In this document: piece after piece, positions 1,021-16,182 of the stretch
How positions within the stretch are numbered: position 1 is the first letter of the stretch
Layout: each line of letters opens with the position of its first letter
IMG/VR virus record: IMGVR_UViG_2526164689_000027
Coordinates: 1 to 16,182 of that record
Source: a virus
Taxonomy: Duplodnaviria; Heunggongvirae; Uroviricota; Caudoviricetes
DNA length: 16,182 bases
Reading direction: 5' to 3' (one strand)
The notes under the pieces: model-generated
Told to the model about the DNA's origin: nothing
Databases searched by the model: none
What the model saw: the letters and a program-made list of their open reading frames with translations, nothing else
Made by a program: the position numbers and the translations under genes

Positions 1021-1069
1021 GCTACTTTGCCATCACGTACAAAATCGGCAAAATATCAGATTTGCATGA

Positions 1070-1098: not shown

Positions 1099-1102
1099 TA
1101 CT

Positions 1103-1771: not shown

Positions 1772-2127
1772 GCGCACTCCAGTTCTGTGATTTTTATCCC
1801 CAGCCGCCCACCAGAAACGAGCTGACCGCGCACAATATTGATTTCATCAAACTGCTCGTCGTCTATGAGAAGTCCGGCATGCGTCAGCGCATCCAGTGGT
1901 GCTTTCAGGATATTGTCCAGGTCACGACGGCGCTTATCCGGTGGCTCTGCAATAATTTTTATTGCCAGCCGTCCGGACAGGCTTAATTTCAGTCGCTGCT
2001 GGCGAACAATTAGTGCCACATCACGGCGATAACGCTCACCGACTTTTGATACAAAATATGTGTTGCCACGACGTCGCCAGTAAGTATTCACCGTCGGCGG
2101 GTAAGGTAAAACCAAATCTATGAGCAT
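1768..2127 (-). CDS. rusA: Crossover junction endodeoxyribonuclease RusA (Holliday junction resolvase)
   Basis: 119 aa with ATG at 2127 and GAGGTG SD. Contains LPYPPTVNTYWRRRG and PDKRRRDLDNILKAPLDALTHAGLLIDDEQ, matching the conserved RusA core including the catalytic DRRRRDLDN-type block. Confidence 0.85.
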   Translation of the reverse strand: MLIDLVLPYPPTVNTYWRRRGNTYFVSKVGERYRRDVALIVRQQRLKLSLSGRLAIKIIAEPPDKRRRDLDNILKAPLDALTHAGLLIDDEQFDEINIVRGQLVSGGRLGIKITELECA

Positions 2128-2139
2128 CAGTCACCTCTT

Positions 2140-3189: not shown

Positions 3190-3190
3190 G

Positions 3191-3460
3191 TTACCTCCAG
3201 ATGCGCTGCAGGAATGTGCGGGACGGACGCGGTGGGCGTTCGGAATAAGGGAGCCTGACGGAGATTATCCAGTGACGACGATCGAAGCTGAGGGCTTTCT
3301 CAAACTCATATCCGCGCCTGCGGTAACACTGGATCAGCCATTCGGCCTGTTCTTCAGTGCATAGGGGATGCTGGAACCAGTCGGTTTTAAATACGTGCGA
3401 ACACCGCCCTTGCCTACTGGCAAGGGCGGCAGAATTGTGCAATCTGCTATCGTGCGCCAT
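3191..3460 (-). CDS. Hypothetical nin-region protein (89 aa)
   Basis: ATG at 3460 with GGAG SD about 9 nt upstream; the stop abuts the DUF968 start. No recognisable motif. Confidence 0.4.
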   Translation of the reverse strand: MAHDSRLHNSAALASRQGRCSHVFKTDWFQHPLCTEEQAEWLIQCYRRRGYEFEKALSFDRRHWIISVRLPYSERPPRPSRTFLQRIWR

Positions 3461-3513
3461 CGGGATCTCCGGTGGCACGGTGTTTCTCAGCGACGGTTCA
3501 AGTCAGCCTGATT

Positions 3514-3741
3514 TTATAGCTGCTTCTGAATATCATCAACAGGTAATCCTGCCAACTCTCTTACCTCAGAAAGAAGAGAAAGGCTTACAACAACCTCATT
3601 ACTTCGCATAACAAAACCACATTGAAAAGAACCATCACTGTTTCTGTAAACAACAACCGGGCGCGTGCTCTCATAAAACCCCGGGATCAAACTGGCTGGG
3701 ATTTTCACAACACCTCCTGACGTAAAGGAAATGAAATGCAT
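3514..3741 (-). CDS. Hypothetical small protein (75 aa; alternative start at 3786)
   Basis: Open frame on the operon strand; ATG at 3741 has only a weak purine-rich SD. No recognisable motif. Confidence 0.3.
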   Translation of the reverse strand: MHFISFTSGGVVKIPASLIPGFYESTRPVVVYRNSDGSFQCGFVMRSNEVVVSLSLLSEVRELAGLPVDDIQKQL

Positions 3742-3929
3742 TATCGCTTCTCTCGGACTATAACCATGAAAAGAGACGCATTTCACTCAGTAAATCTGAG
3801 GATTTTATGCGCAAGAACAATGACTTTTTCTGTCTGCCGTTTATACAATCTGAATTACGTCTATTTTTTGAACACCGATAAATCAGCAAGCATTCTCAAA
3901 TAAAGATTGCCTCCATAGTCCACATGGTG

Positions 3930-3944
3930 TAACACTATGTGTTA
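3930..3944 (+). promoter_or_regulatory. Palindromic putative operator in the promoter of the toxin-antitoxin pair
   Basis: TAACAC-TAT-GTGTTA perfect inverted repeat, overlapping an AT-rich -10-like TATATAAAAT about 20 nt upstream of the toxin ATG (3965). Type II TA operons are usually autoregulated through such palindromes. Confidence 0.3.
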
Positions 3945-3964
3945 TATAAAATGCAGAGGCAGGT

Positions 3965-4336
3965 ATGCGAATTTTCAAAAACGCCTGGTTTGAACGTTTC
4001 GCCCGAAAACATCGGATTTCCGATAAATCGCTGCGCAAAATCGTGGAGCAGGCCGATAAGGGGATCATATCCGCAAATTTGGGTAGTGGTGTCATTAAAC
4101 AAAGATTAGCCCGAAGTGGTGGCGGAAAATCAGGCGGTTACCGGACAATAATTTTTTACCGCGTTGCAGAAAAAGCCTTTTTCATCTACGCATACGCAAA
4201 GAATGAACGAGAGAATATCACTGCTATAGAGGAAAATGCTTTTCGAAAAGCCGCTCCCCATGTCCTCAATCTTACTGATGAACAGCTGGCACAATTGATT
4301 CAACAAGGCCAGTTCACGGAGGTACCCAATGAGTAA
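3965..4336 (+). CDS. RelE/ParE-superfamily toxin, HigB-2 / Gp49-like (123 aa)
   Basis: Block GSGVIKQRLARSGGGKSGGYRTIIFYRVAEKAFFIYAYAKNERENITAIEENAFRK parallels the V. cholerae HigB-2 core (GTGGLRKIRV...GKRGGSRIIYYF...YLLTIYGKNE). Its stop overlaps the start of the next gene by 8 nt, with toxin first as in HigBA-type operons. Confidence 0.7.
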   Translation: MRIFKNAWFERFARKHRISDKSLRKIVEQADKGIISANLGSGVIKQRLARSGGGKSGGYRTIIFYRVAEKAFFIYAYAKNERENITAIEENAFRKAAPHVLNLTDEQLAQLIQQGQFTEVPNE

Positions 4337-4646
4337 AAATTACCGCAGTGATGCACTTGCATCTGTACATGAAATGATGGAGTCACTCCATGATATCGGT
4401 GCAATCACAAAACAAACTATGCGCGAATTCGATGAAACTTGTCTTCAGCCTGCGCCGGTAATGTCTCCGGAAAGGATCCGTGCACTGCGAGAACGAGAGC
4501 ATCTGTCTCAACCTGTTTTTGCCAGATACCTCAACGTCAGTAAAAACCTGATATCAGACTGGGAACGAGGAGTGAAACGCCCGGGAGGTGCAGCTCTTCG
4601 GCTTCTTTCAGTTGTCGAGAAAAACGGGATCCAGGTAATATCCTGA
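4329..4646 (+). CDS. HTH (XRE-type) antitoxin, HigA-2-like (105 aa)
   Basis: Translationally coupled to the toxin. C-terminal region RIRALREREHLSQPVFARYLNVSKNLISDWERGVKRPGGAALRLL is a typical XRE helix-turn-helix. Confidence 0.7.
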   Translation: MSKNYRSDALASVHEMMESLHDIGAITKQTMREFDETCLQPAPVMSPERIRALREREHLSQPVFARYLNVSKNLISDWERGVKRPGGAALRLLSVVEKNGIQVIS

Positions 4647-4748
4647 TATTCTAATACAACAAAACCCGCCGAAGCAGGTTAAGTGCGGGTGCGTTGAGGA
4701 TGCCTGACACATCAGAGGTGGCGAGGGATTTCTCCCTCGCCAGGTCTC

Positions 4749-4904
4749 TTACTCCTCAGGTTCGTAAGCTGTGAAGACAGCGACCTCCGTCTGGCCGGTT
4801 CGGATTCGTACCTCGCAGAGGTCTTTCCTCGTTACCAGTGCCGTCACTATGACGGTTAAACAGATGACAATCAGGGCGATTAACATCGCCTTTTGCTGCT
4901 TCAT
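4749..4904 (-). CDS. hokD: Hok/Gef-family type I membrane toxin (HokD/RelF-like, 51 aa)
   Basis: MKQQKAMLIALIVICLTVIVTALVTRKDLCEVRIRTGQTEVAVFTAYEPEE matches the Hok/Gef family across its full length (transmembrane helix then conserved CEVR..GQTEVAVFTAYE). ATG at 4904; the track ORF extends in frame to an upstream ATG at 4961. Confidence 0.85.
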   Translation of the reverse strand: MKQQKAMLIALIVICLTVIVTALVTRKDLCEVRIRTGQTEVAVFTAYEPEE

Positions 4905-5175
4905 AGCCTGCTTCTCCTTGCCTTTCGGCACGTAAGAGGCTAACCTACATGTGCAAAGCATGAAATTGGCCTCAGATTAATGTTAAGCGTCCTGCAAGAC
5001 GCGTAATGTTAACTGGGGCTTTTCTCTGTCTGCCTTACGGCGGCATGCCCGAGGCAGACAGCCTCAAGCACCCGCAGCAATTCTACTTAACTCTTCTTTC
5101 CCCGCAAATCATTTTATCCCCGATGGTAATGTTCTCCCGATATGGGAATTCCCATATCAAGGTTAACTCAATCGG

Positions 5176-5727
5176 TTAAAGCTCCATTAATTTTCCGGCC
5201 AGTTCATCTCGTGGCATTACCAGCCATCCGCGCGATTTAAGCAAAGCCAGGGCTTCTTCAACCGTCACCAGCTGGCCAGGCGCATAACTTCGGATGAAGG
5301 CGGTTTTATCGTCACGGATCGCCAGGTGAAAATCGATATTCATTTTTCCCATAGCCCGCTCTTTCTCGTACTGGTTGAAGTAACTGTCTTCGAGTTTTTC
5401 GAATACTTCCCACGCCTGATCGGTTTCGAGCATTTTTGCATGACGGGCTGCTCCGCGTTCTGTCCAGAGGATGAGAGTGCGGGTTTTGGGAGAAATTTTC
5501 ACCTCATTTTGCGACTCGTTTAAAACTAGTCGCAAATTTTTGAGCTCATCACCAACAGCTTTAAAGAAGTGTTTTCCCTCAATAAATCGAGATTTATTTT
5601 CATGGTGATTCTGCTGTATACGGATTGCTTCTGTTCCGTAAAGGCGGGCGAGTAACTCAGTTGTGATTACAGGAATCTGGTTATAAGTGACAGGGGAAAG
5701 GTTTTTGACAGTAACTTGAGTCGTCAT
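5176..5727 (-). CDS. ORF6N-domain protein (phage antirepressor-like, 183 aa)
   Basis: ATG at 5727 with GAGGG SD. N-terminus ITTELLARLYGTEAIRIQQNHHENKSRFIEGKHFFKAVGDEL fits the ORF6N/KilA-N-like consensus (from recollection). Confidence 0.5.
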   Translation of the reverse strand: MTTQVTVKNLSPVTYNQIPVITTELLARLYGTEAIRIQQNHHENKSRFIEGKHFFKAVGDELKNLRLVLNESQNEVKISPKTRTLILWTERGAARHAKMLETDQAWEVFEKLEDSYFNQYEKERAMGKMNIDFHLAIRDDKTAFIRSYAPGQLVTVEEALALLKSRGWLVMPRDELAGKLMEL

Positions 5728-5891
5728 GATAACGCCCTCTGGTTGATGAATTTAACTATCACCACCTTCAGGTCTCAATCATCAGGTGGCGAGACGTACA
5801 GGGTTGAGACTACCGGATCAACCAACCGGCCAGCCTTTCGGCTGCCCCATACGCCTCACCATAATTCAGATGTGCGTGCGCATACGACAAT

Positions 5892-5913
5892 AAAAAACAC
5901 GCTCGCGGCGTGT
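5892..5913 (-). terminator. Rho-independent terminator in the nin-type region (tR2-like position)
   Basis: On the minus strand: stem ACACGC / GCGTGT with 5-nt loop CGCGA, followed by 6 U (complement of A5892-A5897). Confidence 0.45.
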
Positions 5914-5998
5914 GTCTGTCGCGGTTGAATATCCGGGGTCTCAATCCCGACGGTCAACTCGACCGTGCGGTGAATATAGCCCCGGATTAGTAATTACG

Positions 5999-6082
5999 TC
6001 AACCCCAGCGGCAAATCGAATAAACCACCAGCGCTACCGCCATTGCAACTCCTGCCGTTACGAATGCCTCAGGCCAGGTCAT
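5999..6082 (-). CDS. Possible 27-aa hydrophobic peptide (MTWPEAFVTAGVAMAVALVVYSICRWG)
   Basis: ATG overlaps the stop of the upstream small gene (ATGA, 6082-6079). The peptide is one predicted transmembrane helix. Below the size cutoff of the ORF track; no dedicated SD. Confidence 0.2.
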   Translation of the reverse strand: MTWPEAFVTAGVAMAVALVVYSICRWG

Positions 6083-6264
6083 CGTAAACTATCCTCAGCG
6101 CCAATCAGTCCGTTTCGCTTCAGGCAGTCCATCGCTTTATACGGTAATTTGGCTGACAGGCGAAAATCACCCTGCAGCATCAGGCTTATTCCCTTATCCC
6201 GGGCTTTCGCTCTGACCGCTGCCTCGCTACGACCAATCAGACTGCCGATACTTTCGACAGTCAT
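6079..6264 (-). CDS. Small putative DNA-binding protein (61 aa, NinH-like position)
   Basis: ATG at 6264; start is uncertain because the track ORF begins upstream at a non-ATG codon. MTVESIGSLIGRSEAAVRAKARDKGISL looks like a helix-turn-helix. Confidence 0.35.
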   Translation of the reverse strand: MTVESIGSLIGRSEAAVRAKARDKGISLMLQGDFRLSAKLPYKAMDCLKRNGLIGAEDSLR

Positions 6265-6323
6265 CGTTCCCGCGCACTGCCGGAGTATCAGAATTTCAGC
6301 CCGGCACCACGTCTTCCACCCAC

Positions 6324-7085
6324 TCACCGCTGCTGTTCTCTGGTGGCGGTAATATCCCGGAGAATATCCCGGCACTTGTTCAGCTCCCGCAGCGCGGCGC
6401 AGACTCGCTCCCACTTCTGAACCTGACCTTTTGCCCGGCGCAGCTCGCGGTTAGCCACATGCAGCGATGGTAAAATCAGCCCATCCGGATGCTTTCTGGT
6501 GAACGACGGCTGTGACTGCACTGTGACCGCCACACTTTCCGTTTTTATTTCTTCCTGTGTTTCCGCTTCCCGGACTGGTAACGCAACACATGCTGGCTGA
6601 GGAAAGGCTTTACCATCGGTTTCCGCTACGGATGCAGCTTCCGGCTCTGCCGGTAAATCAGCGCCCGGTATGCAGTAACGAAATTTACCGTTCTGATTTA
6701 CGCGTGCCAGGCGCCCCGTTGCTGTTACGACCGCCAACGTGGAAGCAACCTTGCGAATGCTAACACCGAACTTATCCGCCAGTTCCTCACACGTTTTAGC
6801 CCCATCCTGACAGATAAACTCAATCATCATGTCCGCGGTAACTTTTTGTTCGACCTCCCCGGTCAGCACATCCGGTACTTCAGACTGTGCTGGCTGTTCT
6901 TCGGTTACCCCGGATTCACCTTCGACAGCCAGAAACCAGGTGTGACCCGTTTTATCAACAACGCCATTTTTTTTGAGTTCCCACAGTTCGTTGAGAACTT
7001 CTTCACGGCTGATATCAAGCCGCGCCGCCAGTTCAACAGAATTGGCTTTACCCATCGCTTTCAGTGCATGCAATACGGTTCCCAT
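6324..7085 (-). CDS. Tandem winged-helix protein (254 aa), function unknown
   Basis: ATG at 7085 with GGAGG SD 9 nt upstream. Two repeated wHTH-like segments, [44 protein letters not shown] and [43 protein letters not shown], plus a charged C-terminal helix. Confidence 0.5.
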
Positions 7086-7119
7086 TAAAATTTCCTCCGG
7101 ATAAAAATTACTTCTCAAA

Positions 7120-7785
7120 TCAGACAAAACCAGCCGCTTTCCGGCGTTCATACTCCTGTTTCAGCAACTCAATTGGCGTTGGTCCCAACGGGCGTTTTGG
7201 TGCCGCCAGTTGTCGCCGTACTGGCGGAACGCTCAGGCCGTTACTAACATGCTTTGCCCATTTCGTCAGCTGCCGTTCTGCAAGCCGTTTTAATTCCCCT
7301 TCGGTCATCTGGCGTTCAATCCCCTTTGAACGCATCTCGAGGCAAATGTGATACAGCACAGGCTGAGGCCACGGATATTTGTCGCTTCCGTTATATCGCC
7401 AGGACTCATTACGCCAGCGGCGATACTCCTCCATCACAGCATCCACCGTCAGGCCAAATGGATTGGCCCCGCTTTCCGAAATCAGCGCCACAAACTCAGC
7501 CAGGTCCGGAGGCCATGTTTCACCCGCCCGGCAGCGGTCCATGCACTGGCGGCAGACCTGCCGGATTTGCTGCTCAGTCATCGCGCCAATCTGTGCAATC
7601 CAGAGCTTCGAAGGTGCGGCCCCGTTCTTCTGGGTCCAGCGGTTCGAATAAACCTCCCCCATGAGTTCCCACAGCTTCCAGGCCGTTTCCGTCGCTGATA
7701 AATCCGTTTTCACGTTCCCACTGCTCACGTGCTGCCCGAATTTCCTGAACTGCCCGTGATGCGGTGCCACCTGGTGCTGCTGCAT
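7120..7785 (-). CDS. Replication protein P-like (lambda P family helicase loader, 221 aa)
   Basis: ATG at 7785 with AGGGGG SD, 4 nt after the O-like stop. Recalled blockwise similarity to lambda P: [13 protein letters not shown] vs [28 protein letters not shown] vs [33 protein letters not shown] vs TDAELRRKAADEL. Confidence 0.6.
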
Positions 7786-7788
7786 GGT

Positions 7789-8613
7789 TTACCCCCTTGC
7801 TGACTGGTTAACCTGCGCCCTGACGTGATTTACGTGACGGGCGAATTTCTGCTCCCACTGAATCTGCGTAAACACTTTCCCCTCCGCTGCCCAGTAGTCC
7901 CGGAATGCGGTAAGTTCAGCAGGTGTAAATTCTGTCTCCGGCAAAGCCATCCCCCACAACGCAGCCCGTCGTCGAAAATCCCGTGACGGATACCAGCTAT
8001 CGGTCATCGGAAATTTTCCGATGGGTTCGCTCAGGCCATCCAGGAATACATGGGGGGCTGCCTGTAACGACAAAACTTCCTGCTCACTGATCGGAGCACT
8101 CTCGCGTGCGTTATGTGTGGGGTTTAGATCTTTGGGTTCCTTTGGGTTCCGTGATCCGTTTTTGGGTGTCTTTGATGGAAAATTTGGGTGTCTTTGGTTA
8201 TTTTCCATGCAACAAAGAGTTCCGTTTTTGGGGCTCTTTTGTGCTGAAACATAACCGTTTTCGGTACTGTTTTTATTAACAGCACCAATTTTACCCACCT
8301 TTAAAGACACCCGTTTTTGGGTGTATTCAGGCTCGGCAACACTTTCTTCTACACCGATAAGTCGGTACACCACAATTTGCTTTGTTCTGCCTTTTCTCTC
8401 ACCGGTATCAACAATTAACCCAATCTCCATCAGGTGTCGTAAGCTGTCCTGCACAGTCTTTTTGTTCAGTTCCGTTACTTCTGCCAGTGCAGATACAGAC
8501 GGGTATGCACACAAATCGGCACCGCACATATCAGCAAGCCAGGTCAATACAGACTTACTGGATGAACTGCCGGTTTTCACCTTTTTAGCCCATCGTAGTG
8601 CATCGATACTCAT
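7789..8613 (-). CDS. Replication initiator, lambda O-like (274 aa), with ori iterons embedded in the coding sequence
   Basis: ATG at 8613 with AGGGG SD; the track's longer start at 8688 would overlap the upstream gene by about 100 nt. N-terminal wHTH (MSIDALRWAKK...LRHLMEIGLIVD), a repeat-encoded linker (KSPKNGT...SKTPKNGSRNPKEPK), and a C-terminal domain, directly upstream of the P-like gene. Confidence 0.6.
   Translation of the reverse strand: MSIDALRWAKKVKTGSSSSKSVLTWLADMCGADLCAYPSVSALAEVTELNKKTVQDSLRHLMEIGLIVDTGERKGRTKQIVVYRLIGVEESVAEPEYTQKRVSLKVGKIGAVNKNSTENGYVSAQKSPKNGTLCCMENNQRHPNFPSKTPKNGSRNPKEPKDLNPTHNARESAPISEQEVLSLQAAPHVFLDGLSEPIGKFPMTDSWYPSRDFRRRAALWGMALPETEFTPAELTAFRDYWAAEGKVFTQIQWEQKFARHVNHVRAQVNQSARG
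8131..8324. repeat. Iteron cluster, putative prophage origin of replication
   Basis: TTTGGGTTCC twice in tandem (8131-8150); TTTGGGTGTCTTTG at 8161-8174 and 8184-8197; degenerate copies at 8225-8240 and 8311-8324; an inverted copy AAAGACACCC at 8303-8312; AT-rich stretch 8253-8300. Lies in the linker region of the O-like gene, as the lambda ori does. Confidence 0.5.
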
Positions 8614-9136
8614 ACGAACCCCTGGCAGATATTTGTTTATCTGCAAAGTAATATTGATACTGCTGACGATACGCATGCTTGAAAGCAATAGCTTTTTCTA
8701 TAAGCTCGTCAGTCTCACGTTCCACAACAGATGGATCCGCAAAAAGCAGTCCGGACTCCACCACATCGCCATATTCTTTGTTTAACCCGGCGATCATGTA
8801 CGTGATGCTTTTTCCGTCACTAATTTCACGATACAACCTGAAATCATTAATCCGGATAGCCTCCATAATTGCAGGCACTAGCGCCGTGAACTTTTCACGC
8901 TTATCCCTGGTGTCGATAGCCTTCCAGCGTTCGAATATCTTCACTCGATTAACGCCAAGCGCTCGCTGATCAACCGCGCCACCTTCATCTGTGACACGCT
9001 GAACATCGATGTTCGGGCGCTCTTTCAAAACCCAGAATGCTTCAGTGATTAATATCGTCGCCTGCTCCTGTGTCATTCCTGGTCGACATATCCAGGCATC
9101 CAGAGCCTCACGAGCCTGTTCAGGAGTGATTTTCAT
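8585..9136 (-). CDS. Protein in the cII position (183 aa), possibly YdaT-like
   Basis: ATG at 9136 overlaps the end of the cro-like gene by 17 nt. Sits between cro-like and O-like genes. Family assignment is by position only and is weak. Confidence 0.4.
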   Translation of the reverse strand: MKITPEQAREALDAWICRPGMTQEQATILITEAFWVLKERPNIDVQRVTDEGGAVDQRALGVNRVKIFERWKAIDTRDKREKFTALVPAIMEAIRINDFRLYREISDGKSITYMIAGLNKEYGDVVESGLLFADPSVVERETDELIEKAIAFKHAYRQQYQYYFADKQISARGSYEYRCTTMG

Positions 9137-9347
9137 TGTTCAACCGCCCCGCCCGCTTCGTCTTACGATATTCGTCATAAACCTTGGGATCATACAGAAG
9201 CTCGCCGCCAGATGCCTCCTGTAGACGCATCGCGCGACCTTCAGGAACTAGCTCTTGCCATTGAGAAACAGCAGATGGGTCAACGCCAGCAGCTTTCGCT
9301 ACTTTGGCTTTCGTACCGTAAAAATTAATTACGTCTGATTTAAACAT
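9120..9347 (-). CDS. dicC: Cro-like HTH regulator (DicC / YdaS family, 75 aa)
   Basis: ATG at 9347 with GGAGGT SD; the track start at 9374 is upstream of the SD. Divergent from the repressor gene. AKVAKAAGVDPSAVSQWQ is a Cro/CI-type HTH, and the C-terminus RAMRLQEASGGELLYDPKVYDEY is typical of this family. Confidence 0.65.
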   Translation of the reverse strand: MFKSDVINFYGTKAKVAKAAGVDPSAVSQWQELVPEGRAMRLQEASGGELLYDPKVYDEYRKTKRAGRLNNENHS

Positions 9348-9354
9348 CGCACCT

Positions 9355-9424
9355 CCAATATTGAGTTTTCTCAATACTAATCACTCAAGGAATCTCAAGT
9401 CAAGGGTTATTAAGATATCTAAAT
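9355..9424. promoter_or_regulatory. Divergent immunity promoter/operator region (oR-like)
   Basis: 14-bp palindrome TTGAGTTTTCTCAA at 9361-9374. On the minus strand, -35 TTGACT (9403-9398) and a -10-like TAGTAT follow with the palindrome over the start site. The repressor gene starts at 9425 with no strong SD. Confidence 0.45.
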
Positions 9425-9832
9425 ATGAACGAGAAAACTTTAGGTCAACGCATTAGAGAAAGACGTAAGCAGGTAGGCTTAAGTCAAAACGGTTTAAGCA
9501 AAGCTGCTGGCGTATCTGGCTCATCAATTTCATTATGGGAAAGTGACCATACAGCCCCGCGCGGGCAAAATTTGCATCGCCTCGCCGAGGTATTGCAATG
9601 TTCACCAACCTGGATACTGTTTGGCGACGAGGACAAAACACCAGCTCCCCCTGTTTCACTCGATAGTACCCTAGACTTATCGGAAGATGAGTTAGAGATG
9701 CTGCGTTTGTATCGCGCACTTCCTAAATCAGAGCAACAAGCACAACTCAGCGAACTCCGCGCCCGCGTTGAGAATTTTAATCGCCTGTTCACCGAGCTAT
9801 TAGAGGCTCGCAAACGCAACAAGCATCAATAA
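9425..9832 (+). CDS. dicA: DicA-like prophage repressor (XRE HTH, 135 aa)
   Basis: N-terminal HTH QRIRERRKQVGLSQNGLSKAAGVSGSSISLWESDH, then LQCSPTWILFGDEDK and C-terminus ELRARVENFNRLFTELLEARKRN, closely matching my recollection of E. coli DicA, which is also 135 aa. Confidence 0.8.
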   Translation: MNEKTLGQRIRERRKQVGLSQNGLSKAAGVSGSSISLWESDHTAPRGQNLHRLAEVLQCSPTWILFGDEDKTPAPPVSLDSTLDLSEDELEMLRLYRALPKSEQQAQLSELRARVENFNRLFTELLEARKRNKHQ

Positions 9833-9890
9833 TCATCCCTTCACAAAATTTTAAAGCCTTACATTTCAATGTATTGGCTTTATCTTGCGC

Positions 9891-9948
9891 CAATACTTGA
9901 GTTTTCTCATCAAAAAACCTTGACGAAAAATAATGAGAAAACTAAATT
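9891..9948 (+). promoter_or_regulatory. oL/pL-like operator-promoter for the leftward early operon
   Basis: CAATACTTGAGTTTTCTCA (9891-9909) repeats the oR motif CAATATTGAGTTTTCTCA (9356-9373) with one extra base; an inverted copy ATGAGAAAACTA is at 9932-9943. -35 TTGACG (9920-9925), 17-nt spacer, -10 TAAATT (9943-9948), with operator copies covering the spacer. Confidence 0.4.
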
Positions 9949-10024
9949 ATCTCCATCAACACACCGCACGGTGTTCTCCGCAAACAGTTCCGCTACCCCG
10001 GCGTTAAGGGGAAATGAGGTCAGC

Positions 10025-10177
10025 ATGGATACTATCGATCTTGGCAACAACGAATCTCTGGTATGTGGCGTGTTTCCCAATCAGGACGGCACGTTTACCG
10101 CGATGACGTATACCAGAAGCAAAACGTTTAAAACGGAAGCTGGCGCGCGTCGCTGGTTAGCAAGAAACTCTGACTGA
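10025..10177 (+). CDS. ydfA: YdfA-like small protein (50 aa), first gene of the dicB-type operon
   Basis: ATG at 10025 with GAGG SD 7 nt upstream; the longer track ORF from 9869 has no SD and crosses the promoter. Size and position after dicA match Qin ydfA. Confidence 0.5.
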   Translation: MDTIDLGNNESLVCGVFPNQDGTFTAMTYTRSKTFKTEAGARRWLARNSD

Positions 10178-10827
10178 TGAGGTTGACGATGGAATTTAAA
10201 GATTTACCTCCTTCAATCCAGGAGATTGCAGCACACACACTTCGTCATCGTCTGAACGAACTTGAATTGGAATCGGTAACGAAAAAAGACACTGATAATA
10301 TGGCTCGTAATGTGCGCGATGCGTTTACCGGATTGTATTTCTGTGCGTCTATAAATAAACACGACTCAGAGAGTGTGGCAAATAAAATTGCAGAAACGAC
10401 AGCGCAAAACATCAATACGAAACCAACGGAAGAAGAAATTGATCAGTTTGCTCATGATGCTGGTTTAAAAAACAAGAAAGAAAAATCGCCATATGCGGGG
10501 AACATGTTTGTTTATGACAATCTCATCAGAATTCGTGGCGAAATTCCGGCGGAATACCTGGCAAGAGTCCATCAGGCATTGCTTAAAAATTTGGAAACAG
10601 AATTATTTGATGGCAACACTAACGGTTTCTTCATGGTATCAGGCCTTGAGAAAGACTGGGATGCAGAAAAACGCTGGAATGTTGCTACATGGTTATTCAG
10701 TAACAGAGCCGCTGCACTGGAAGCTTCGGCATGTATTTGCGGCCTGTTCTTAACAGACCACAAATATAATCTGGATGTGTACAGTTATATTTACGCTGAA
10801 CACGGTCCACTCTGGATTGACTGGTAA
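10177..10827 (+). CDS. Hypothetical 216-aa protein, no recognisable domain (alternative start 10189)
   Basis: ATG at 10177 overlaps the upstream stop (TGATG); the internal ATG at 10189 has a GAGG SD. Soluble, acidic, no transmembrane segment or nucleotide-binding motif seen. Occupies the slot where I recall Qin carrying only the small ydfB/ydfC genes. Confidence 0.5.
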   Translation: MRLTMEFKDLPPSIQEIAAHTLRHRLNELELESVTKKDTDNMARNVRDAFTGLYFCASINKHDSESVANKIAETTAQNINTKPTEEEIDQFAHDAGLKNKKEKSPYAGNMFVYDNLIRIRGEIPAEYLARVHQALLKNLETELFDGNTNGFFMVSGLEKDWDAEKRWNVATWLFSNRAAALEASACICGLFLTDHKYNLDVYSYIYAEHGPLWIDW

Positions 10828-11037
10828 TTATAAGGAAACACCAGCAGGGCCGCGGCGACCAACAGAACGATTAAAATCAATAATGCCATTATAAAGGACA
10901 TTATTTAATTTATCGTCGAATGCTGATTCTGTGAGCCTCAACTCTGAATGAGTTTTTAATAACCCTGATTGCCTGAGTTGATTTACCAGGCATTCAATCT
11001 GTTTTTCAATAAGCGGATTTCTTTTTTTGTTTGGCAT
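10828..11037 (-). CDS. Hypothetical 69-aa protein, convergent with and abutting the 216-aa gene
   Basis: ATG at 11037 with GGAGGA SD 5 nt upstream. Its stop codon (10830-10828) directly abuts the stop of the plus-strand gene (10825-10827). Opposite orientation to the surrounding operon. Confidence 0.35.
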   Translation of the reverse strand: MPNKKRNPLIEKQIECLVNQLRQSGLLKTHSELRLTESAFDDKLNNVLYNGIIDFNRSVGRRGPAGVSL

Positions 11038-11376
11038 TTTATCCTCCATTGAGGTTCTGGGTTAAAAATGGAGACCAACACGCTGTCACGTGTGGTCGTG
11101 CGCCGGACACGGATAAGAATCCGGTACTGACAGTTTACTGAAAGGATATTTCCCTGAAAAGTCAGTGCATAACGCGAAAGCGTACGGCGAAGCTCTTTCC
11201 CTTAGAAGGCTTGTCGTTAGATTTCTTCGAACGTGCGCTTCCGGTTGTGGCACTCCGCGAAATGGCGCGGCGGTAAGTATGGCGGGGTTATTCCTTCCCC
11301 AGTTGAGGACACCGGGTTGTCAGGTTGACCATACGCTTAAGTGACAACCCCGCTACAACGCCCTCTGTTATCAATA

Positions 11377-11434
11377 TTCTGGTGACATTTGGCGGTATCA
11401 GTTTTACTCCGTGACTGCTCTGCCGCCCTTTTTT
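11377..11434 (+). ncRNA. dicF: DicF small regulatory RNA (Hfq-dependent sRNA targeting ftsZ and other mRNAs)
   Basis: TTCTGGTGACATTTGGCGGTATCAGTTTTACTCCGTGACTGCTCTGCCGCCCTTTTTT matches my recollection of E. coli DicF almost base for base, including the terminator hairpin GGCGG (11391-11395) / CCGCC (11423-11427) and U-tract. Lies just upstream of dicB as in Qin. The 5' end is approximate (RNase-processed in K-12). Confidence 0.7.
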
Positions 11435-11604
11435 AAAAGTGAATTTTGTGATGCGGTGAATGCGGCTCAGCGCACGCGGAACAGTTAAAACCAAAAACAG
11501 TGTTATGGGTGGATTCTCTGTATCCGGCGTTAATTGTTAACTGGTTAACGTCACCTGGAGGCACCAGGCACCGCATCACAAAATTCATTGTTGAGGACGC
11601 GATA

Positions 11605-11793
11605 ATGGAAAAGTTATCATGTAATGCCAGCACGTCTGAACTTCGTTTCGAAATTGGCGTTATCACTGGAGACAAAACATTTATTGAAGACGCCATTAAG
11701 CAGAGAAAACTCGAGCAGGACCTGTTAAATGAAGTATGCATTCCTTCAATGCTGGCTCGTCTGGACCTGCTGCAAAAAGGATATAAACAATGA
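11605..11793 (+). CDS. dicB: Cell-division inhibitor DicB (62 aa)
   Basis: ATG at 11605 with GAGGA SD; the track ORF from 11500 would run through DicF. MEKLSCNASTSELRFEIGVITGDKTFIEDAIKQRKLEQDLLNEVCIPSMLARLDLLQKGYKQ aligns with recalled DicB (FEIGV, EDAI, SMLARL blocks) at the same 62-aa length. Confidence 0.8.
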   Translation: MEKLSCNASTSELRFEIGVITGDKTFIEDAIKQRKLEQDLLNEVCIPSMLARLDLLQKGYKQ

Positions 11794-11981
11794 ATACAAC
11801 ATTTGCACTCGTTCTGACAGTTTATCTTGTTTCCGGCGAATCTCTTGAGCTGGTGACTGGCTTATACGGTTCAATGAAAGAATGCATGGCTGCAGCAGCA
11901 GAACAAAAAATTCCCGGTAACTGTTATCCGGTAGATAAAACTACTCACACTAATAATAACGAAATACCGGCAGGACTTTAA
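11790..11981 (+). CDS. ydfD: YdfD-like small lysis/membrane protein (63 aa)
   Basis: ATG overlaps the dicB stop (ATGA). Hydrophobic N-terminus MNTTFALVLTVYLVSG, 63 aa, immediately after dicB as in Qin. Confidence 0.65.
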   Translation: MNTTFALVLTVYLVSGESLELVTGLYGSMKECMAAAAEQKIPGNCYPVDKTTHTNNNEIPAGL

Positions 11982-12074
11982 AACAGCACCGTAATTAATA
12001 TCCGGTTTCATTTTTATATGCCAGCAATGGCAGGGATTTGTTCACCCTTAAATCTGTAATGAGGTTAAAACAAA

Positions 12075-14546
12075 ATGAGTAAAGTCTTTATTTGCGCCGC
12101 CATTCCGGACGAACAGGCAATAAAAGAAGAGGGCGCAGTTGCTGTAGCCACTGCCATTGAAGCCGGTGATGAACGCCGCGCCCGTGCCAAATTTACCTGG
12201 CAATTCCTGGAGCAATATCCTGCTGCTCAGGACTGCGCTTATAAATTTCTTGTCTGCGAAGATAAACCTGGCATGCCCCGCCCTGCTATCGACTCCTGGG
12301 ATACCGAATATATGCAGGAAAACCGCTGGGATGAGGAATCCGCTTCCTTTATTCCGGTCGAACCAGAATCCGATCCTATTAACGTCAATTTTGACAAGCT
12401 GTCCCTTGAAGTACAGAACGCGGTCCTGGTTAAGTTCGGTACATGTGAAAACATCACCGTTGATATGGCGATTGACGCGCAGGAATTACTGCAAGAAGAC
12501 GTGGCTACCTTTGACGGACATATCGTTGAAGCACTGATGAAAACGCCTGAAATTAACGCTATGTATCCGGAACGCAAACTGTTCGCTATCGGATGGGTTA
12601 AACACAAATGTAAGCCGGGTACCAAATGGCCCGAAATTCAGGCTGAATTACGTAACTGGAAAAAACGGCAGGACGCAGAGCGCAAAGAGACTGGAAAATA
12701 CACGTCTGTTGTTGATCTTGCCCGCGCCAAAGCCAACCGACAGCACACTGAAAACCCAGCAGAAAAAATCCCTCCTGTAACTGCCGCCATTCATCGCGAA
12801 TACAAGCAGACATGGAAAACCCTGGACAGGGAGCTGGCCTACTATCTCTGGCCTGGTGATGCGGATGCCGGAAACATTGACGGCAGCATCCTTCGCTGGG
12901 CTAAAAATGAAGTTATCGCCAGAGATCGCGAAGACTGGAAGCGCATCTCCGCATCAATGCGCAAACAACCTGATGCGCTTCGCTACAGCCGCCAGACTAT
13001 TTTTGGCCTTGTCCGTGAACGTCCGATCGACATTCACAAAGACCCTGTGGCACTGAACAAATACATTACTGAATACCTGACTACAAAGGGCGTGTTTGAA
13101 GATGAAGGAAGAAATCAGAGCGCAACTGATACTCTCTCGTCGCCAGTACCAGAAACTGATGCAGTGGAAACGGCAATTCAGGACAACGAAAAAACCGAAT
13201 GCAAAGTGGAAGTCGAATCATCTGTAGAGCGTGAGGGGCCGTTCTACTTCCTCTTCAGCGACAAGGATGGCGAAAAATACGGTCGTGCAAACAAACTTTC
13301 TGGTCTGAATAAGGCGCTGGCTGCAGGGGCTACTGAAATCACGAAAGAAGAATATTTTGCCCGCAAAAACGGTACATACTCAGGTTCACAACAAAATACT
13401 GGTGCATCTGACACGATCGCACAACCGGAGCCGGTAAAAGTTACCGCTGACGAAGTAAACAAAATTATGCAGGCAGCCAATATCAGCCAGCCTGACGCCG
13501 ATAAGTTGCTTGCTGTATCACGTGGTGAATTTGTTGCAGGGATTAGCGACCCGAATGATCCGAAATGGGTGAAGGAGATTGAAACCCGCGATTCAGTGAA
13601 TCAGAACCAGCAAGAAACGGAACAGAACGACCAGAAAGCGGAACAAAACAGCCCAAATGCGTTACAAAACGAGCCAGAAACGAAACAATCCGAACCAGTA
13701 GTGCAACAGGAACCGGAAAAAGTCTGCACCGCCTGCGGTCAGAGCGGTGGCGGCAACTGCCCCGATTGTGGCGCTGTCATGGGCAACGCAACATACCAGG
13801 AAACATTCGATGAAGAGAATCAGGTTGAAGCTCAGGAGAATGATCCGGAGGAAATGGAAGGCGCTGAACATCCACACAAGGAGAACACTGGCGGCAATCA
13901 GCATCACGCCAGCGATAGTGAAACTGGCGAGGCGGCAGATCCCTTAATTAAGGTGAATGGTCATCACAATCTCACATCCACCAGCAGAGCGGGGATTCAT
14001 CTGATGATCGACATTGAAACCATGGGAAAAAATCCCAATGCCGCGATTATCTCAATAGGCGCAATATTTTTCGATCCACAAACCGGAGATATGGGACCGG
14101 AATTTAGCAAGACCATCGATCTGGATACTGCTGGCGGAGTTATTGATCGTGACGTCATTAAATGGTGGCTGAAGCAATCACGTGAAGCGCAGTCTGCCAT
14201 TCTGACCGATGAAATCCCGTTAGATGATGCACTACTGCAATTGCGGGAATTTATCGCCGAAAACTCCGGTGAATTTTTTGTTCAGGTCTGGGGAAATGGA
14301 GCCAACTTCGACAACGTGATTTTACGCCGTTCATACGAACGGCAGGGGATCCCCTGCCCCTGGCACTACCACAACGATCGCGATGTACGCACAATCGTTG
14401 AGCTAGGGAAAGCCATAGACTTCGATGCCAGAACAGCTATCCCATTCGAAGGTGAGCGCCACAATGCACTTGATGACGCCCGTTACCAGGCAAAATACGT
14501 TTCAGCTATCTGGCAAAAACTGATCCCGAGTCAGGCTGATTTTTAA
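12075..14546 (+). CDS. Large prophage exonuclease (823 aa): unassigned N-terminal region, Cys4 zinc ribbon, C-terminal DEDDh 3'-5' exonuclease domain
   Basis: ATG at 12075 with GAGG SD. C-terminal motifs MIDIETMG (Exo I), WGNGANFDNVIL (Exo II) and HNALDDARYQ (Exo III) define a DnaQ-like DEDDh exonuclease. CTACGQSGGGNCPDCG (about 13721-13775) is a CxxC...CxxC zinc ribbon. Position corresponds to Qin ydfE, which I recall as a 306-aa IS-truncated remnant in K-12. Confidence 0.75.
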   Translation: MSKVFICAAIPDEQAIKEEGAVAVATAIEAGDERRARAKFTWQFLEQYPAAQDCAYKFLVCEDKPGMPRPAIDSWDTEYMQENRWDEESASFIPVEPESDPINVNFDKLSLEVQNAVLVKFGTCENITVDMAIDAQELLQEDVATFDGHIVEALMKTPEINAMYPERKLFAIGWVKHKCKPGTKWPEIQAELRNWKKRQDAERKETGKYTSVVDLARAKANRQHTENPAEKIPPVTAAIHREYKQTWKTLDRELAYYLWPGDADAGNIDGSILRWAKNEVIARDREDWKRISASMRKQPDALRYSRQTIFGLVRERPIDIHKDPVALNKYITEYLTTKGVFEDEGRNQSATDTLSSPVPETDAVETAIQDNEKTECKVEVESSVEREGPFYFLFSDKDGEKYGRANKLSGLNKALAAGATEITKEEYFARKNGTYSGSQQNTGASDTIAQPEPVKVTADEVNKIMQAANISQPDADKLLAVSRGEFVAGISDPNDPKWVKEIETRDSVNQNQQETEQNDQKAEQNSPNALQNEPETKQSEPVVQQEPEKVCTACGQSGGGNCPDCGAVMGNATYQETFDEENQVEAQENDPEEMEGAEHPHKENTGGNQHHASDSETGEAADPLIKVNGHHNLTSTSRAGIHLMIDIETMGKNPNAAIISIGAIFFDPQTGDMGPEFSKTIDLDTAGGVIDRDVIKWWLKQSREAQSAILTDEIPLDDALLQLREFIAENSGEFFVQVWGNGANFDNVILRRSYERQGIPCPWHYHNDRDVRTIVELGKAIDFDARTAIPFEGERHNALDDARYQAKYVSAIWQKLIPSQADF

Positions 14547-14615
14547 TGTTCAACCATCGCCGGTTGTGACTGGTATTCTGCAACCGGCCCTCATCTGATG
14601 TAAGAGATAAAAGCG

Positions 14616-14867
14616 ATGAGCGAAGTAATCATGATTGTCTCTCCCGGTAAATGGGTATCCGAAGAGCAGTTAATTGCGCTGAAAGGAATAAAAAAAGGTA
14701 CGTTAAAAAAGGCCCGGGAAAAATCGTTTATGGAAGGAAGGGAATATAAGCATGTCGCTCATGACGGTATGCCATGGGATAACAGTCCATGCTTTTACAA
14801 CCTGGAAGAAATTGATCGCTGGATTGAGCGCCAGGCATCTGCAAGACCAAGACGTCATCTTGCTTGA
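14616..14867 (+). CDS. Excisionase-like protein (83 aa)
   Basis: Small basic protein directly upstream of the integrase; WVSEEQLIALKGIKKGTLKKAREKSFMEGREYKH is consistent with a winged-helix Xis fold. Start is uncertain (14616 or 14631). Confidence 0.5.
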   Translation: MSEVIMIVSPGKWVSEEQLIALKGIKKGTLKKAREKSFMEGREYKHVAHDGMPWDNSPCFYNLEEIDRWIERQASARPRRHLA

Positions 14868-14901
14868 CTAAAAGCAACACGAACCAATGAGAGAAGCTGA
14901 A

Positions 14902-16182
14902 ATGAAATATCCGACAGGCGTGGAAAACCATGGAGGGAAATTACGTATCTGGTTTGTTTATAAAGGTGTAAGAGTCCGGGAAAATCTTGGGGTTCCTGAC
15001 ACAGCAAAAAACAGGCGCATTGCAGGTGAGCTACGCGCCTCTGTTTGTTACGCAATAAAAACTGGCGCTTTCGACTATGCAAAACAGTTTCCCGCCTCAC
15101 ACAATCTGGAAAAATTTGGTGAGGCCCGACAAGATTTAACCATAAAAGAACTGGCTGAAAAATTTCTGGCACTGAAAGAAACTGAAGTCGCAAAAACGTC
15201 ACTCAACACGTACCGTGCCGTCATCAAAAATATTCTGAGCATAATCGGTGAAAAAAATCTTGCATCATCGATTAATAAAGAAAAATTGCTGGCGGTACGT
15301 AAAGAGTTACTGACTGGATACCAGATCCCCAAAAGTAACTATATTGTTACACAACCAGGGAGATCGGCTGTTACCGTAAATAATTACATGACAAATCTTT
15401 ACGCCGTGTTCCAGTTTGGTGTTGATAACGGTTATCTGGCAGACAATCCATTTAAGGGGATCTCACCATTAAAGGAGTCGAGAACCATCCCGGATCCACT
15501 TTCGCGGGAGGAGTTTATCCGCCTTATTGACGCGTGCAGAAATCAGCAAGCCAAAAATTTATGGTGTGTTTCCGTTTATACTGGGATTCGCCCTGGTGAA
15601 CTCTGTGCGCTTGGATGGGAAGATATAGATCTGAAAAATGGAACAATGATAATCAGAAGAAATCTGGCAAAAGACCGTTTTACAGTACCAAAAACACAGG
15701 CGGGAACCAATCGTGTGATTCACCTTATTAAGCCCGCAATCGACGCTCTCCGGAGTCAGATGGCACTAACGAGACTGAGCAAAGAGCATATCATCGATGT
15801 TCACCTCAGAGAATTCGGCAGAACAGAGAAACAAAAATGTACCTTTGTTTTTCAACCTGAAGTGTCAGCGAAAGTAAAAAATTATGGTGACCATTTTACC
15901 GTTGACTCAATAAGGCAGATGTGGGACGCAGCGGTAAAGCGTGCCGGAATCCGCCATCGCAAATCGTATCAGTCGAGACACACTTATGCCTGCTGGTCGT
16001 TAACAGCAGGAGCTAACCCGGCATTCATTGCAAACCAGATGGGCCATGCAGATGCGCAAATGGTGTTTCAGGTGTACGGGAAATGGATGTCAGAAAATAA
16101 TAATGCGCAGGTAACGCTGTTAAATACACAGTTAAGCGAGTTTGCCCCAACCATGCCCCATAACGAAGCGATGAAAAGTTAA
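14902..16182 (+). CDS. Tyrosine-type phage integrase (426 aa from ATG 14902; alternative ATG 14887)
   Basis: Catalytic-domain signature RPGELCALGWEDID ... SRHTYACWSLTAGANPAFIANQMGHADAQMVFQVYGKWM (R, H-x-x-R, G-H, Y). N-terminus MKYPTGVENHGGKLRIWF is typical of lambdoid prophage integrases. The stop TAA is at 16180-16182, the window end. Confidence 0.85.
   Translation: MKYPTGVENHGGKLRIWFVYKGVRVRENLGVPDTAKNRRIAGELRASVCYAIKTGAFDYAKQFPASHNLEKFGEARQDLTIKELAEKFLALKETEVAKTSLNTYRAVIKNILSIIGEKNLASSINKEKLLAVRKELLTGYQIPKSNYIVTQPGRSAVTVNNYMTNLYAVFQFGVDNGYLADNPFKGISPLKESRTIPDPLSREEFIRLIDACRNQQAKNLWCVSVYTGIRPGELCALGWEDIDLKNGTMIIRRNLAKDRFTVPKTQAGTNRVIHLIKPAIDALRSQMALTRLSKEHIIDVHLREFGRTEKQKCTFVFQPEVSAKVKNYGDHFTVDSIRQMWDAAVKRAGIRHRKSYQSRHTYACWSLTAGANPAFIANQMGHADAQMVFQVYGKWMSENNNAQVTLLNTQLSEFAPTMPHNEAMKS

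Follow-up and report, generated by a model that had tools for sequence, protein, structure and literature searches.

DicF is a textbook small RNA (sRNA), yet the RNA ahead of it has been handled only as a disposable precursor. Whether that RNA has a role of its own is the question raised by IMG/VR record IMGVR_UViG_2526164689_000027, a Caudoviricetes virus of which we analysed positions 1 to 16,182 (this whole stretch of 16,182 nucleotides (nt) is referred to as the window in the rest of the text) and in which a hairpin of 9 base pairs (bp) lies just upstream of a dicF gene. The original prediction, drawn from the letters alone, took this hairpin for a candidate processing site. Here we find that it is one helix of a conserved leader RNA domain that recurs without DicF in other phages, and we tentatively propose that this domain acts in cis to let transcription pass the terminator behind it.

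The hairpin upstream of DicF is one helix of a larger RNA domain

Direct reading and a repeat finder both gave GGGTTGTCA (11314-11322) pairing with TGACAACCC (11342-11350), that is, nine perfect pairs around a 19-nt loop, with the 3′ arm ending 25 nt ahead of the DicF 5′ end (11376). The stem is present exactly as originally described, and its sequence is 100% identical in Escherichia coli K-12. By itself, a stem of 9 bp says little. About 9 perfect hairpins of this kind occur in the window, 14 nine-mer hits were observed against a first-order Markov expectation of about 1.6, and the local fold z-score around the hairpin is about −2.2. Covariation provides the stronger support. In an alignment of 118 distinct homologous copies taken from IMG/VR, genomes and phage records, six of the nine pairs exhibit compensatory changes on both sides, including the pair-preserving variants GGGTAACCA/TGGTTACCC, GAGCTACCA/TGGTAGCTC and GGATCACCA/TGGTGATCC, and 96.5% of the alignment cells are paired, a share that falls to 29-55% on sliding the partner strand by 1-3 columns. 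The hairpin is real, and it corresponds to helix P5 (SL-B) of a larger leader RNA domain with the following parts, all on the plus strand.

11244-11359, plus strand: leader domain, 116 nt, comprising P1, P2, P3, SL-A, P5 and a pseudoknot (covariation, minimum free energy (MFE) folding, covariance model R1)
11244-11251, plus strand: closing helix P1, 5′ strand GUUGUGGC, pairs with 11352-11359
11352-11359, plus strand: closing helix P1, 3′ strand GCUACAAC (covariation, MFE)
11255-11270, plus strand: P2 hairpin CCGCG-AAAUGG-CGCGG (11255-59/11266-70), almost invariant
11271-11274, plus strand: P3 5′ strand CGGU, pairs with ACCG at 11311-11314 (RNAalifold)
11311-11314, plus strand: P3 3′ strand ACCG, with G11314 shared with the first P5 pair
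11277-11282, plus strand: pseudoknot 5′ strand GUAUGG, tentatively paired with CCAUAC
11329-11334, plus strand: pseudoknot 3′ strand CCAUAC, in the P5 hairpin loop
11284-11300, plus strand: SL-A hairpin GGGG-UUAUUCCUU-CCCC (11284-87/11297-300), of which length and sequence vary by phage
11314-11350, plus strand: P5 (SL-B), the hairpin of the original prediction, lower stem 11314-22/11342-50 (covariation in 6 of 9 pairs)
11323-25/11335-37, plus strand: possible 3-bp upper stem of P5 (RNAalifold)
11326-34, plus strand: 9-nt loop of P5, which carries the pseudoknot strand

Each helix left its own trace in the alignment. Compensatory changes in helix P1 include GCUGU/ACAGC in sequence type L271, and those in SL-A replace G:C by A:U and by U:A. 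P2 is 97.8-98.5% paired with one compensatory case, while P3 covaries at a single pair (U:A to C:G in 6 sequences). The cells of the pseudoknot are 99.4% paired and the 19-nt P5 loop is almost invariant; a U:A pair becomes C:G in the phage P1 lineage (5 sequences, GCAUGG/CCAUGC), with U.G intermediates in a sister lineage (5 sequences). The P5 loop therefore probably pairs with GUAUGG, a tentative assignment based on this one covarying pair. Over all helices, 97.5% of the cells are paired and 11 pairs changed on both sides, values that none of 500 shuffles reached, and sliding the partner strand again reduced pairing to 29-55%. A model-based alignment, which is fitted to the model and hence biased towards it, gave compensatory changes in 15 of 28 pairs and at least one in every helix. 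Folding 11244-11360 alone yielded an MFE structure with exactly the comparative architecture, and covariance model R1 scored 167 bits at this locus, its single copy in the window. Approximately 60 near-invariant nucleotides, mostly in the structural core, are common to the copies of phage P1 and of lambdoid phages. Together, these comparisons establish the predicted fold of the leader domain and its conservation.

Such results bear on the possibility that the hairpin is a chance repeat, a DNA element (operator, or repeats at the ends of a small mobile element) or a piece of a short open reading frame (ORF; 11165-11344 on the plus strand or 11288-11494 on the minus strand). About 1.6 perfect 9-bp hairpin hits are expected per window anyway, the domain behaves as an insertion/deletion bounded by inverted repeats, and hypothetical ORFs are annotated over it in several phages. 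However, the compensatory changes in the internal helices, with their G.U intermediates, point to selection on a plus-strand RNA, and 1-nt indels between close relatives (11301, in a CCCC/CCCCC run) would break the frame of a small ORF. We consider the probability of all these readings to be next to negligible, and on account of the indels we rejected ORF 11165-11344 as a coding sequence. An alternative pairing of GCGGGGUU (11282-89) with AACCCCGC (11346-53) was also discarded, as the two strands are not complementary in phage P1 and conflict with the covarying SL-A and P5.

Scanning 11150-11650 against Rfam 15 (cmscan, E≤10) returned only DicF and an STnc100-like match, none of them on the domain, and the domain copies of phage P1, Ayreon and pPE4 gave no Rfam 15 match at E≤1. 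A full-text search with the loop and core sequences found no paper, although the 1990 and 1994 papers of Faubladier et al. lay outside its scope and might hold an early drawing. The accessible literature contains no description of the fold, of its covariation or of its occurrence without DicF, and a recent study dedicated to DicF omits both the structure of this region and read-through of the terminator (PMC10448788). The domain is thus absent from Rfam and the accessible literature, and apparently undescribed.

RNase III and RNase E cut outside the hairpin

The 5′ ends of two K-12 species have been assigned, that of a 190-nt RNA to RNase III and that of the 53-nt DicF to RNase E (PMC10448788); in this respect Ragunathan et al. 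(2023) confirm Faubladier et al. (1990). The original prediction likewise starts from excision of DicF from a longer transcript by the two enzymes. The 190-nt form builds up when RNase E is inactivated and is lost in an rnc mutant, and a prominent transcript of 1,146 nt ends at the DicF terminator (PMC10448788). A 72-nt form of DicF has an alternative 3′ end produced by RNase III cleavage of the full-length transcript (PMC9438474, PMC5069750). We placed these ends on the window together with the surrounding elements.

11232-11239, plus strand: P0 5′ strand CGUGCGCU, complementary to 11469-76 (tentative)
11360-11387, plus strand: linker with the RNase E site AAU↓AUU, cut at 11375/76 (5′ end of the K-12 53-nt form, RNase E-dependent)
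11376-11428, plus strand: DicF sRNA, 53-nt form (Rfam RF00039, K-12 alignment)
11391-11427, plus strand: DicF terminator hairpin GGCGGUAUCAG...CUGCUCUGCCGCC, with CCGCC at 11423-27 and U6 at 11429-11434
11435-11592, plus strand: module closed by a 24-bp long-range stem (11435-58/11569-92), between DicF and the dicB ribosome-binding site
11469-11476, plus strand: P0 3′ strand AGCGCACG, beyond the terminator (in the fold of 11222-11484)

A distance of 190 nt back from 11428-11434 leads to about 11238-11245 for the RNase III cut, which places it some 70 nt ahead of the hairpin; the position is estimated from the length of the species, as the exact K-12 base was not recovered. Since the two ends fall about 70 nt upstream and 25 nt downstream of the hairpin, neither enzyme cleaves there. 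The literal reading of the original prediction, that the hairpin itself is cut by RNase III or RNase E to free DicF, has in its favor that no local stem upstream of DicF is stronger. Yet cleavage inside 11314-11350 would yield products of about 80-115 nt, not the 190 and 53 nt that were observed (PMC10448788), and the RNase III-dependent ends lie elsewhere, that of the 190-nt species at about 11238-11245 and that of the 72-nt form at about 11447. The hairpin offers 9 pairs, or at most 12 with the upper stem, which is well below what RNase III calls for. Classically, the substrate of this enzyme is about two helical turns (roughly 20 bp) of duplex. RNase E, for its part, cuts single-stranded AU-rich RNA, and its mapped site is 25 nt downstream. 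A cut in the hairpin is thus extremely improbable.

Two other helices match the RNase III substrate criteria better than the 9-bp hairpin does. The first, P0, pairs at the same relative position across sequence types with compensatory changes (C:G to A:U in L320, GUGCUCU/AGAGCAU in the Ayreon type); in the MFE structure of 11222-11484 it is part of an interrupted duplex of about 19 bp that brackets the domain and the terminator. As the estimated RNase III cut falls at the 3′ edge of the P0 5′ strand, P0 is probably the RNase III site that gives the 190-nt 5′ end. The second, the 24-bp stem, covaries in 67 distinct copies, with two G.U pairs of K-12 being G:C here, and as the 72-nt end (about 11447) falls inside it, this stem is the predicted RNase III site for the 72-nt form. 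The RNase E site lies in the loop of a predicted hairpin (11366-73/11380-87) and AAU↓AUU keeps the form RN↓WUU, the RNase E cleavage rule, despite the U1A change in DicF.

It follows from these coordinates that the leader domain is the 5′ ~135 nt, or two-thirds, of the known 190-nt precursor, and is cut away during DicF maturation. The leader-domain sequence of the K-12 precursor (Faubladier et al. 1990; PMC10448788) is essentially identical to that of the window, but the literature consulted treats this precursor solely as a processing intermediate.

The domain precedes different terminators in P1-like and lambdoid phages

Sensitive DNA searches with 11244-11367, which includes the hairpin and excludes DicF, found the domain without DicF in phage P1 and its relatives, Ayreon, cdtI, 2H10, PhiR47_1, Stx2c phages, Salmonella phage F1055 and pPE4. 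Among plasmids, 511 records contain the segment; most of them are P1-like phage-plasmids (about 90-100 kb) that come from Escherichia, Salmonella, Klebsiella and Shigella. Over 80% of the complete E. coli genomes have the domain as well, K-12 included. An intrinsic terminator lies about 10-35 nt 3′ of the domain in 27 of the 29 sequence types. These terminators comprise DicF, at least six other GGCGG-based hairpins, the long hairpins of types L211 and L248, and GCCCAUCUUCGGGUGGGC-U7 in phage P1; on sequence, DicF is therefore one of about eight different terminator hairpins attached to the domain.

In every case examined, the domain lies on the sense strand of a repressor-controlled early operon. 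It lies about 15-40 nt from the start of the C1-controlled promoter Pban in phage P1; in Ayreon and pPE4 it comes about 275-300 nt downstream of the repressor gene, with at most an ORF of 39 codons in between. In L248 it follows the cro/repressor pair, and in the Qin type two or three small genes. As far as these occurrences indicate, the domain and its predicted intrinsic terminator are a shuffled module of the repressor-controlled early operons of P1-like and lambdoid phages.

The phage P1 copy has been annotated, though only as a 'dicF-like region' (misc_feature 68791-68892, NC_005856). This region, in the leader of the ban operon, contains the same domain (93 bits with R1) directly downstream of Pban and is followed by an intrinsic terminator. 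However, phage P1 has no DicF: the homology is that of the leader domain and not of the sRNA. The terminator of phage P1, GCCCAUCUUCGGGUGGGC-U7, bears no relation to DicF, and ahead of the helix P1 3′ strand there is an additional small hairpin.

The domain is also missing from some otherwise similar loci. In Rac-SA53 (L445 1454-1500), a clean empty site joins GGTTGT and AACGACATTGCTGTGTGTAG by AAAT, the interior of about 108 nt being absent while remnants of the helix P1 strands, the terminator and the flanking stems are intact. Shigella phage 75/02 Stx (L444 1495-1530) keeps only the 3′ third of the domain, and the Salmonella locus of a DicF-like sRNA (L029) is devoid of it. Two wider scans did not enlarge the family: matches of a contig scan with a 17-base DicF core were mostly due to chance, the real ones coming only from Escherichia, Shigella and Salmonella, and 3 of 120 hits of a metagenome scan with a 15-base motif were real members.

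In many types, including L248, L201, L261 and L264, the CACAAC of the helix P1 3′ strand is followed about 5 nt further by GUUGUG, a copy of the helix P1 5′ strand. In L248 the two could form an alternative hairpin, CACAAC-ACUCC-GUUGUG, which is degenerate (ACAAC...GUUAU) in the window (11355-11371) and in the K-12 type.

A candidate cis-acting read-through element

The ~60 near-invariant nucleotides common to phage P1 and lambdoid phages are more readily explained if a conserved host machine recognizes the domain than if RNases do, as these tolerate sequence variation. Likewise, constant adjacency to a terminator without conserved pairing to it suggests action on the elongating polymerase. 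In fully folded units, that is, representatives with a complete domain and terminator, the two fold independently and exhibit no conserved mutually exclusive pairing, as would be expected of an action on RNA polymerase and not of an antiterminator hairpin. The position of the domain, often promoter-proximal and on the sense strand of an early operon, counts in the same direction. We propose tentatively, and at a level of confidence well short of probable, that the leader domain is a cis-acting, put-like read-through element. Once folded, the domain would work in cis on the very complex that transcribed it, like the put RNA of phage HK022, and only host factors would be needed. Part of the polymerases would then pass the adjoining terminator and reach dicB, or exo-xis-int in intact phages, or the tRNAs and ban in phage P1. 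Terminated transcripts, together with read-through ones cut by RNase III, would supply the sRNA, with RNase III cutting at the 5′ base of the domain, probably at P0, and RNase E in the linker 25 nt 3′ of the hairpin. Phage Tritos, known from a sequenced genome, has the same ydfABC-DicF-dicB-ydfD-exo-xis-int operon, in which exo, xis and int lie beyond the DicF terminator.

The likeness to HK022 putL and putR is that of a structured RNA located early in a repressor-controlled lambdoid operon that lacks N, upstream of terminators. Antitermination by put needs no phage protein (PMC9378689). A nut site would call for an N-type antiterminator gene that shares its operon. No N-like protein was detected when the operon proteins of the window, Ayreon and Tritos were scanned with PHROG and Pfam, none is annotated, and phage P1 has none either. 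Comparison with the boxA consensus and with boxB, a 15-nt hairpin with a GNRA-like pentaloop, was made by eye only: some types carry UGCUCUCUU 5′ of helix P1 where the K-12/window type has GUGCGCUUCC instead, and the loop of P2, which has 5 bp, reads AAAUGG or ACAGG. DicB, beyond such a terminator, is expressed once dicBp alone is derepressed in the cryptic prophage Qin, and the bac-1 operator/promoter mutation at Pban has the same result for Ban in a P1 lysogen. Such genetics are consistent with a read-through element and with leaky termination equally.

Several observations weigh against this proposal. Searches for similarity to put were negative, with blastn-short against the HK022 immunity and early region giving only chance 9-13-mers and R1 a best score of 9 bits. 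The put RNA measures about 70 nt and consists of two long stem-loops and a triplex (PMC9378689), unlike the 116-nt, five-helix domain with its probable pseudoknot, and HK022 has L and R copies where there is one copy per phage here. The window holds a single copy and none on the PR side, as neither patterns allowing 3 mismatches nor an unfiltered model search, genes up to Q included, found a second one. The 1,146-nt K-12 transcript indicates that termination at DicF is substantial (PMC10448788). Two types (L250 and L271) carry the domain without a terminator, and the Rac and 75/02 Stx types have an equivalent terminator without an intact domain, so that neither read-through nor leakiness strictly requires it. 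Finally, P3 and the pseudoknot each depend on a single covarying pair, and the RNase III end was estimated by length. Taken as a whole, a DicF gene preceded by a five-helix leader domain that promotes put-like read-through in cis is our best explanation of the locus, which we hold to be almost, if not quite, probable.

A broader reading is that the domain represents a new class of leader RNA, which would either act on the host transcription machinery as an antiterminator of a fold unrelated to put or sense a cellular signal. The domain would thereby decide whether transcription stops at the DicF-type terminator, giving the sRNA, or continues to dicB/kil, to the recombination and excision genes or to the tRNA-ban genes of phage P1. 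Such a class is possible, albeit on the unlikely side. Another reading is a riboswitch-like attenuator, the pseudoknotted core of which would bind a small molecule or a host protein and switch the terminator by alternative pairing. The conserved, aptamer-like core and the closing helix P1 directly upstream of a terminator are what such an element would have, the GUUGUG copy that follows the 3′ strand of helix P1 in many types makes an alternative hairpin possible, and GGCGCGGCGG... is base-paired to the terminator 3′ arm in the MFE structure of the 190-nt RNA. Nevertheless, no known riboswitch family in Rfam matches, the modular fold is the MFE structure or within 1-6 kcal/mol of it wherever the full unit was folded, and pairing between domain and terminator is not conserved, the terminators of phage P1, L211 and L248 being unrelated. 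We judge an attenuator very unlikely, and we rejected pairing of GGCGCGGCGG... with the DicF terminator 3′ arm as a general mechanism because it is not conserved across terminator types.

Two further explanations rest on the fate of the RNA after transcription. In one of them the domain is a cargo, namely a stable structured noncoding RNA that acts in trans, for instance by binding or titrating a host protein. In phage P1 it would be the primary transcript, about 170 nt long and spanning Pban to the terminator, and in lambdoid phages a fragment (about 135 nt) released by an RNase III cut near 11241 and an RNase E cut at 11375/76, with the hairpin in its core fold. The promoter-domain-terminator layout in phage P1 resembles a stand-alone sRNA gene, and two mapped RNase sites flank the domain, which is closed by helix P1, compact and probably pseudoknotted, hence likely to be nuclease-resistant. 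Furthermore, the empty site of Rac marks it as an optional, self-contained insert, and its invariant nucleotides are mostly those of a structural core, as in protein-binding RNAs. A fragment of this kind has not been reported; it would escape detection because the published Northern probes (oligo EM2684) target DicF only. Against a cargo stands the near-constant adjacency to a terminator, which would be superfluous if RNases do release the RNA; in addition, no candidate partner is known and no protein-binding RNA family of Rfam matches. We regard this explanation as unlikely, if still worth considering.

The other explanation retains the idea of the original prediction in a broad form: the domain would be a processing or stability scaffold that places RNase III at the base of P0 and helix P1 and RNase E in the linker, and maybe protects the precursor, for precise excision of an sRNA borne by a terminator, as stem-loops do for MicL. 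In its favor, the domain is bordered on both sides by mapped cleavages, the bracketing helix P0 is conserved, and the RNase E site keeps its RN↓WUU form despite U1A. The RNase III-cut long-range helices of the lambda N leader and sib, which sit in PL transcripts and arise in read-through RNA only, offer a parallel. In the stem-loop-guided processing of 3′UTR sRNAs such as MicL, RNase E cuts beside stable helices (PMC9438474), and the 190-nt intermediate accumulates without RNase E (PMC10448788). But the lambda and MicL elements are simple extended hairpins with little sequence conservation, and as RNase III and RNase E tolerate sequence variation, a scaffold leaves the ~60 invariant nucleotides of the pseudoknotted core shared with phage P1 unexplained. 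DicF-like terminators with the same P0 and long-stem flanks lack the domain in Rac-SA53, 75/02 Stx and Salmonella, and the terminator of the Ayreon type follows only about 12 nt further on, with almost no sRNA body to excise. A scaffold is thus distinctly unlikely.

If the domain is functional, it could explain how the DicF terminator is passed towards the toxic dicB, and towards exo-xis-int in intact relatives, without N. It would also open a way into the P1 ban operon leader and make DicF one of several terminator hairpins behind a common module, thereby suggesting a family of unstudied phage sRNAs. If the domain is only a scaffold, the finding shrinks to a well-annotated copy of a known sRNA. 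The matter is approachable in K-12 itself, which carries a near-identical sequence.

DicF and its operon

The sRNA is an ordinary copy of the phage-borne DicF, already known and correctly assigned by the original prediction. Rfam family RF00039 matches 11377-11428 on the plus strand over the full model (1-52) with 77 bits, compared to a gathering score of 48, and the terminator hairpin is followed by its U6 tail. Alignment to the dicF locus of K-12 (MG1655), which had been called for as a check, gave near identity from about 11228 to 11600, while the adjoining dicB coding sequence is strongly diverged. DicF itself differs from the K-12 sequence at nt 1 (U to A, 11376) and nt 12 (G to A, 11387), a combination that is a minority allele among the collected copies; nt 13-53 are those of K-12, so that the ftsZ-pairing 3′ half is conserved. 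The collected copies have G, A or U at position 12, a site flanked by the 5′ seed on one side and the terminator stem on the other. Of 5,426 complete E. coli genomes, about 4,000-4,700 have the DicF locus.

Positions 2613204-2629386 (reverse strand) of E. coli O111:H11 strain 8D (NZ_CP077469.1) are identical to the window, and the locus of O145 strain RM9872, in which the integrase abuts rspB, matches it at 100% over 11100-11700. What the window spans is the early part of a lambdoid prophage, with, in order, Q, RusA, a RelE/HTH pair, hokD/sok, a c4/isrK-type antirepressor region and replication genes. Next come YdaT-like and cro/dicC-like genes on the minus strand, followed on the plus strand by the dicA-like gene, a DUF1391 (ydfA-like) gene, a gene of 212 codons, DicF, dicB and a DUF1482 (ydfD-like) gene, beyond which lie genes for an 823-residue exonuclease, an excisionase and an integrase. 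The elements of the immunity region and of the operon are as follows.

9120-9347, minus strand: dicC/cro-like regulator (RefSeq annotation of the identical locus)
9361-9373: operator-like TTGAGTTTTCTCA, third copy, in the dicC/dicA intergenic region
9425-9832, plus strand: dicA-like repressor, 135 residues, 57% identical to K-12 DicA
9897-9909, and inverted at 9934-9946 (minus strand): operator-like TTGAGTTTTCTCA, flanking the promoter
9920-9948, plus strand: PL/dicBp-like promoter TTGACG-17-TAAATT (promoter-like sequence, site 9897-9948)
10025-10177, plus strand: ydfA-like gene (DUF1391), upstream operon gene
10189-10827, plus strand: gene of 212 codons, upstream operon gene
11605-11793, plus strand: dicB homologue, 62 residues, 55% identical to K-12 DicB
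11790-11981, plus strand: ydfD-like gene (DUF1482), 63 residues (annotation)

DicF thus occupies its usual place between ydf genes and dicB, under a DicA/DicC-type immunity region, and the terminator and the ftsZ-pairing 3′ half are those of the Qin DicF (RF00039), while the two substitutions and the diverged neighbouring proteins set the locus apart. The original prediction that the operon is intact holds in so far as all its ORFs are open and the promoter is present. However, its divergent DicA and DicB, the absence of the TTGAGTTTTCTCA motif from K-12 (Qin) and the replacement of ydfB and ydfC by the 212-codon gene and a minus-strand ORF make it a heteroimmune relative of the Qin operon. 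It is also the more complete one, as this prophage retains exonuclease, xis, int, O/P-like genes and Q, far more than Qin does. The expectation of DicA control fared similarly. Because copies of TTGAGTTTTCTCA flank the promoter and recur between dicC and dicA, control of DicF by a repressor is plausible here, and the three copies are probably the OR- and OL-type operators of this immunity type; but the repressor is only 57% identical to DicA and the motif is not that of K-12.

The module between DicF and dicB gave the STnc100-like match of the Rfam scan. RF02076 (STnc100) aligns with 11442-11582 on the plus strand below threshold (37 bits, E = 1e-6, gathering score 47), and a full STnc100 is present at 536-724 on the minus strand, just downstream of the Q antiterminator gene, in the expected late-promoter leader. 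Sub-threshold matches also occur in the P1 ban operon, pPE4 and Ayreon (L196 3842-3961; L198 2758-2942; L197 4056-4236). A multi-hairpin module of this kind may recur among phage operons and might serve there for RNase III punctuation; the 11442-11582 element is distinct from the hairpin and from the leader domain.

A perfect 10-nt inverted repeat, ATTCATTGTT/AACAATGAAT (11583-11592 and 11786-11795), joins the upstream flank of the dicB ribosome-binding site to the overlap of the dicB stop and ydfD start, and could affect translation by long-range pairing. Between the 212-codon gene and the leader domain, a conserved ORF of 69 codons (phrog_4274, WP_001133037.1) lies on the minus strand at 10828-11037 with a promoter-like site at 11065-11036, and may be a moron-like gene expressed in the lysogen. 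Elsewhere, the minus-strand segments 4749-5073, 5782-5966 and 5176-5727 hold a hokD/sok type I toxin-antitoxin system beside a C4 antisense RNA and an isrK RNA, upstream of a gene for an ORF6N-domain (antirepressor-like) protein; these prophage RNA regulators are of known kinds and score above the Rfam thresholds.

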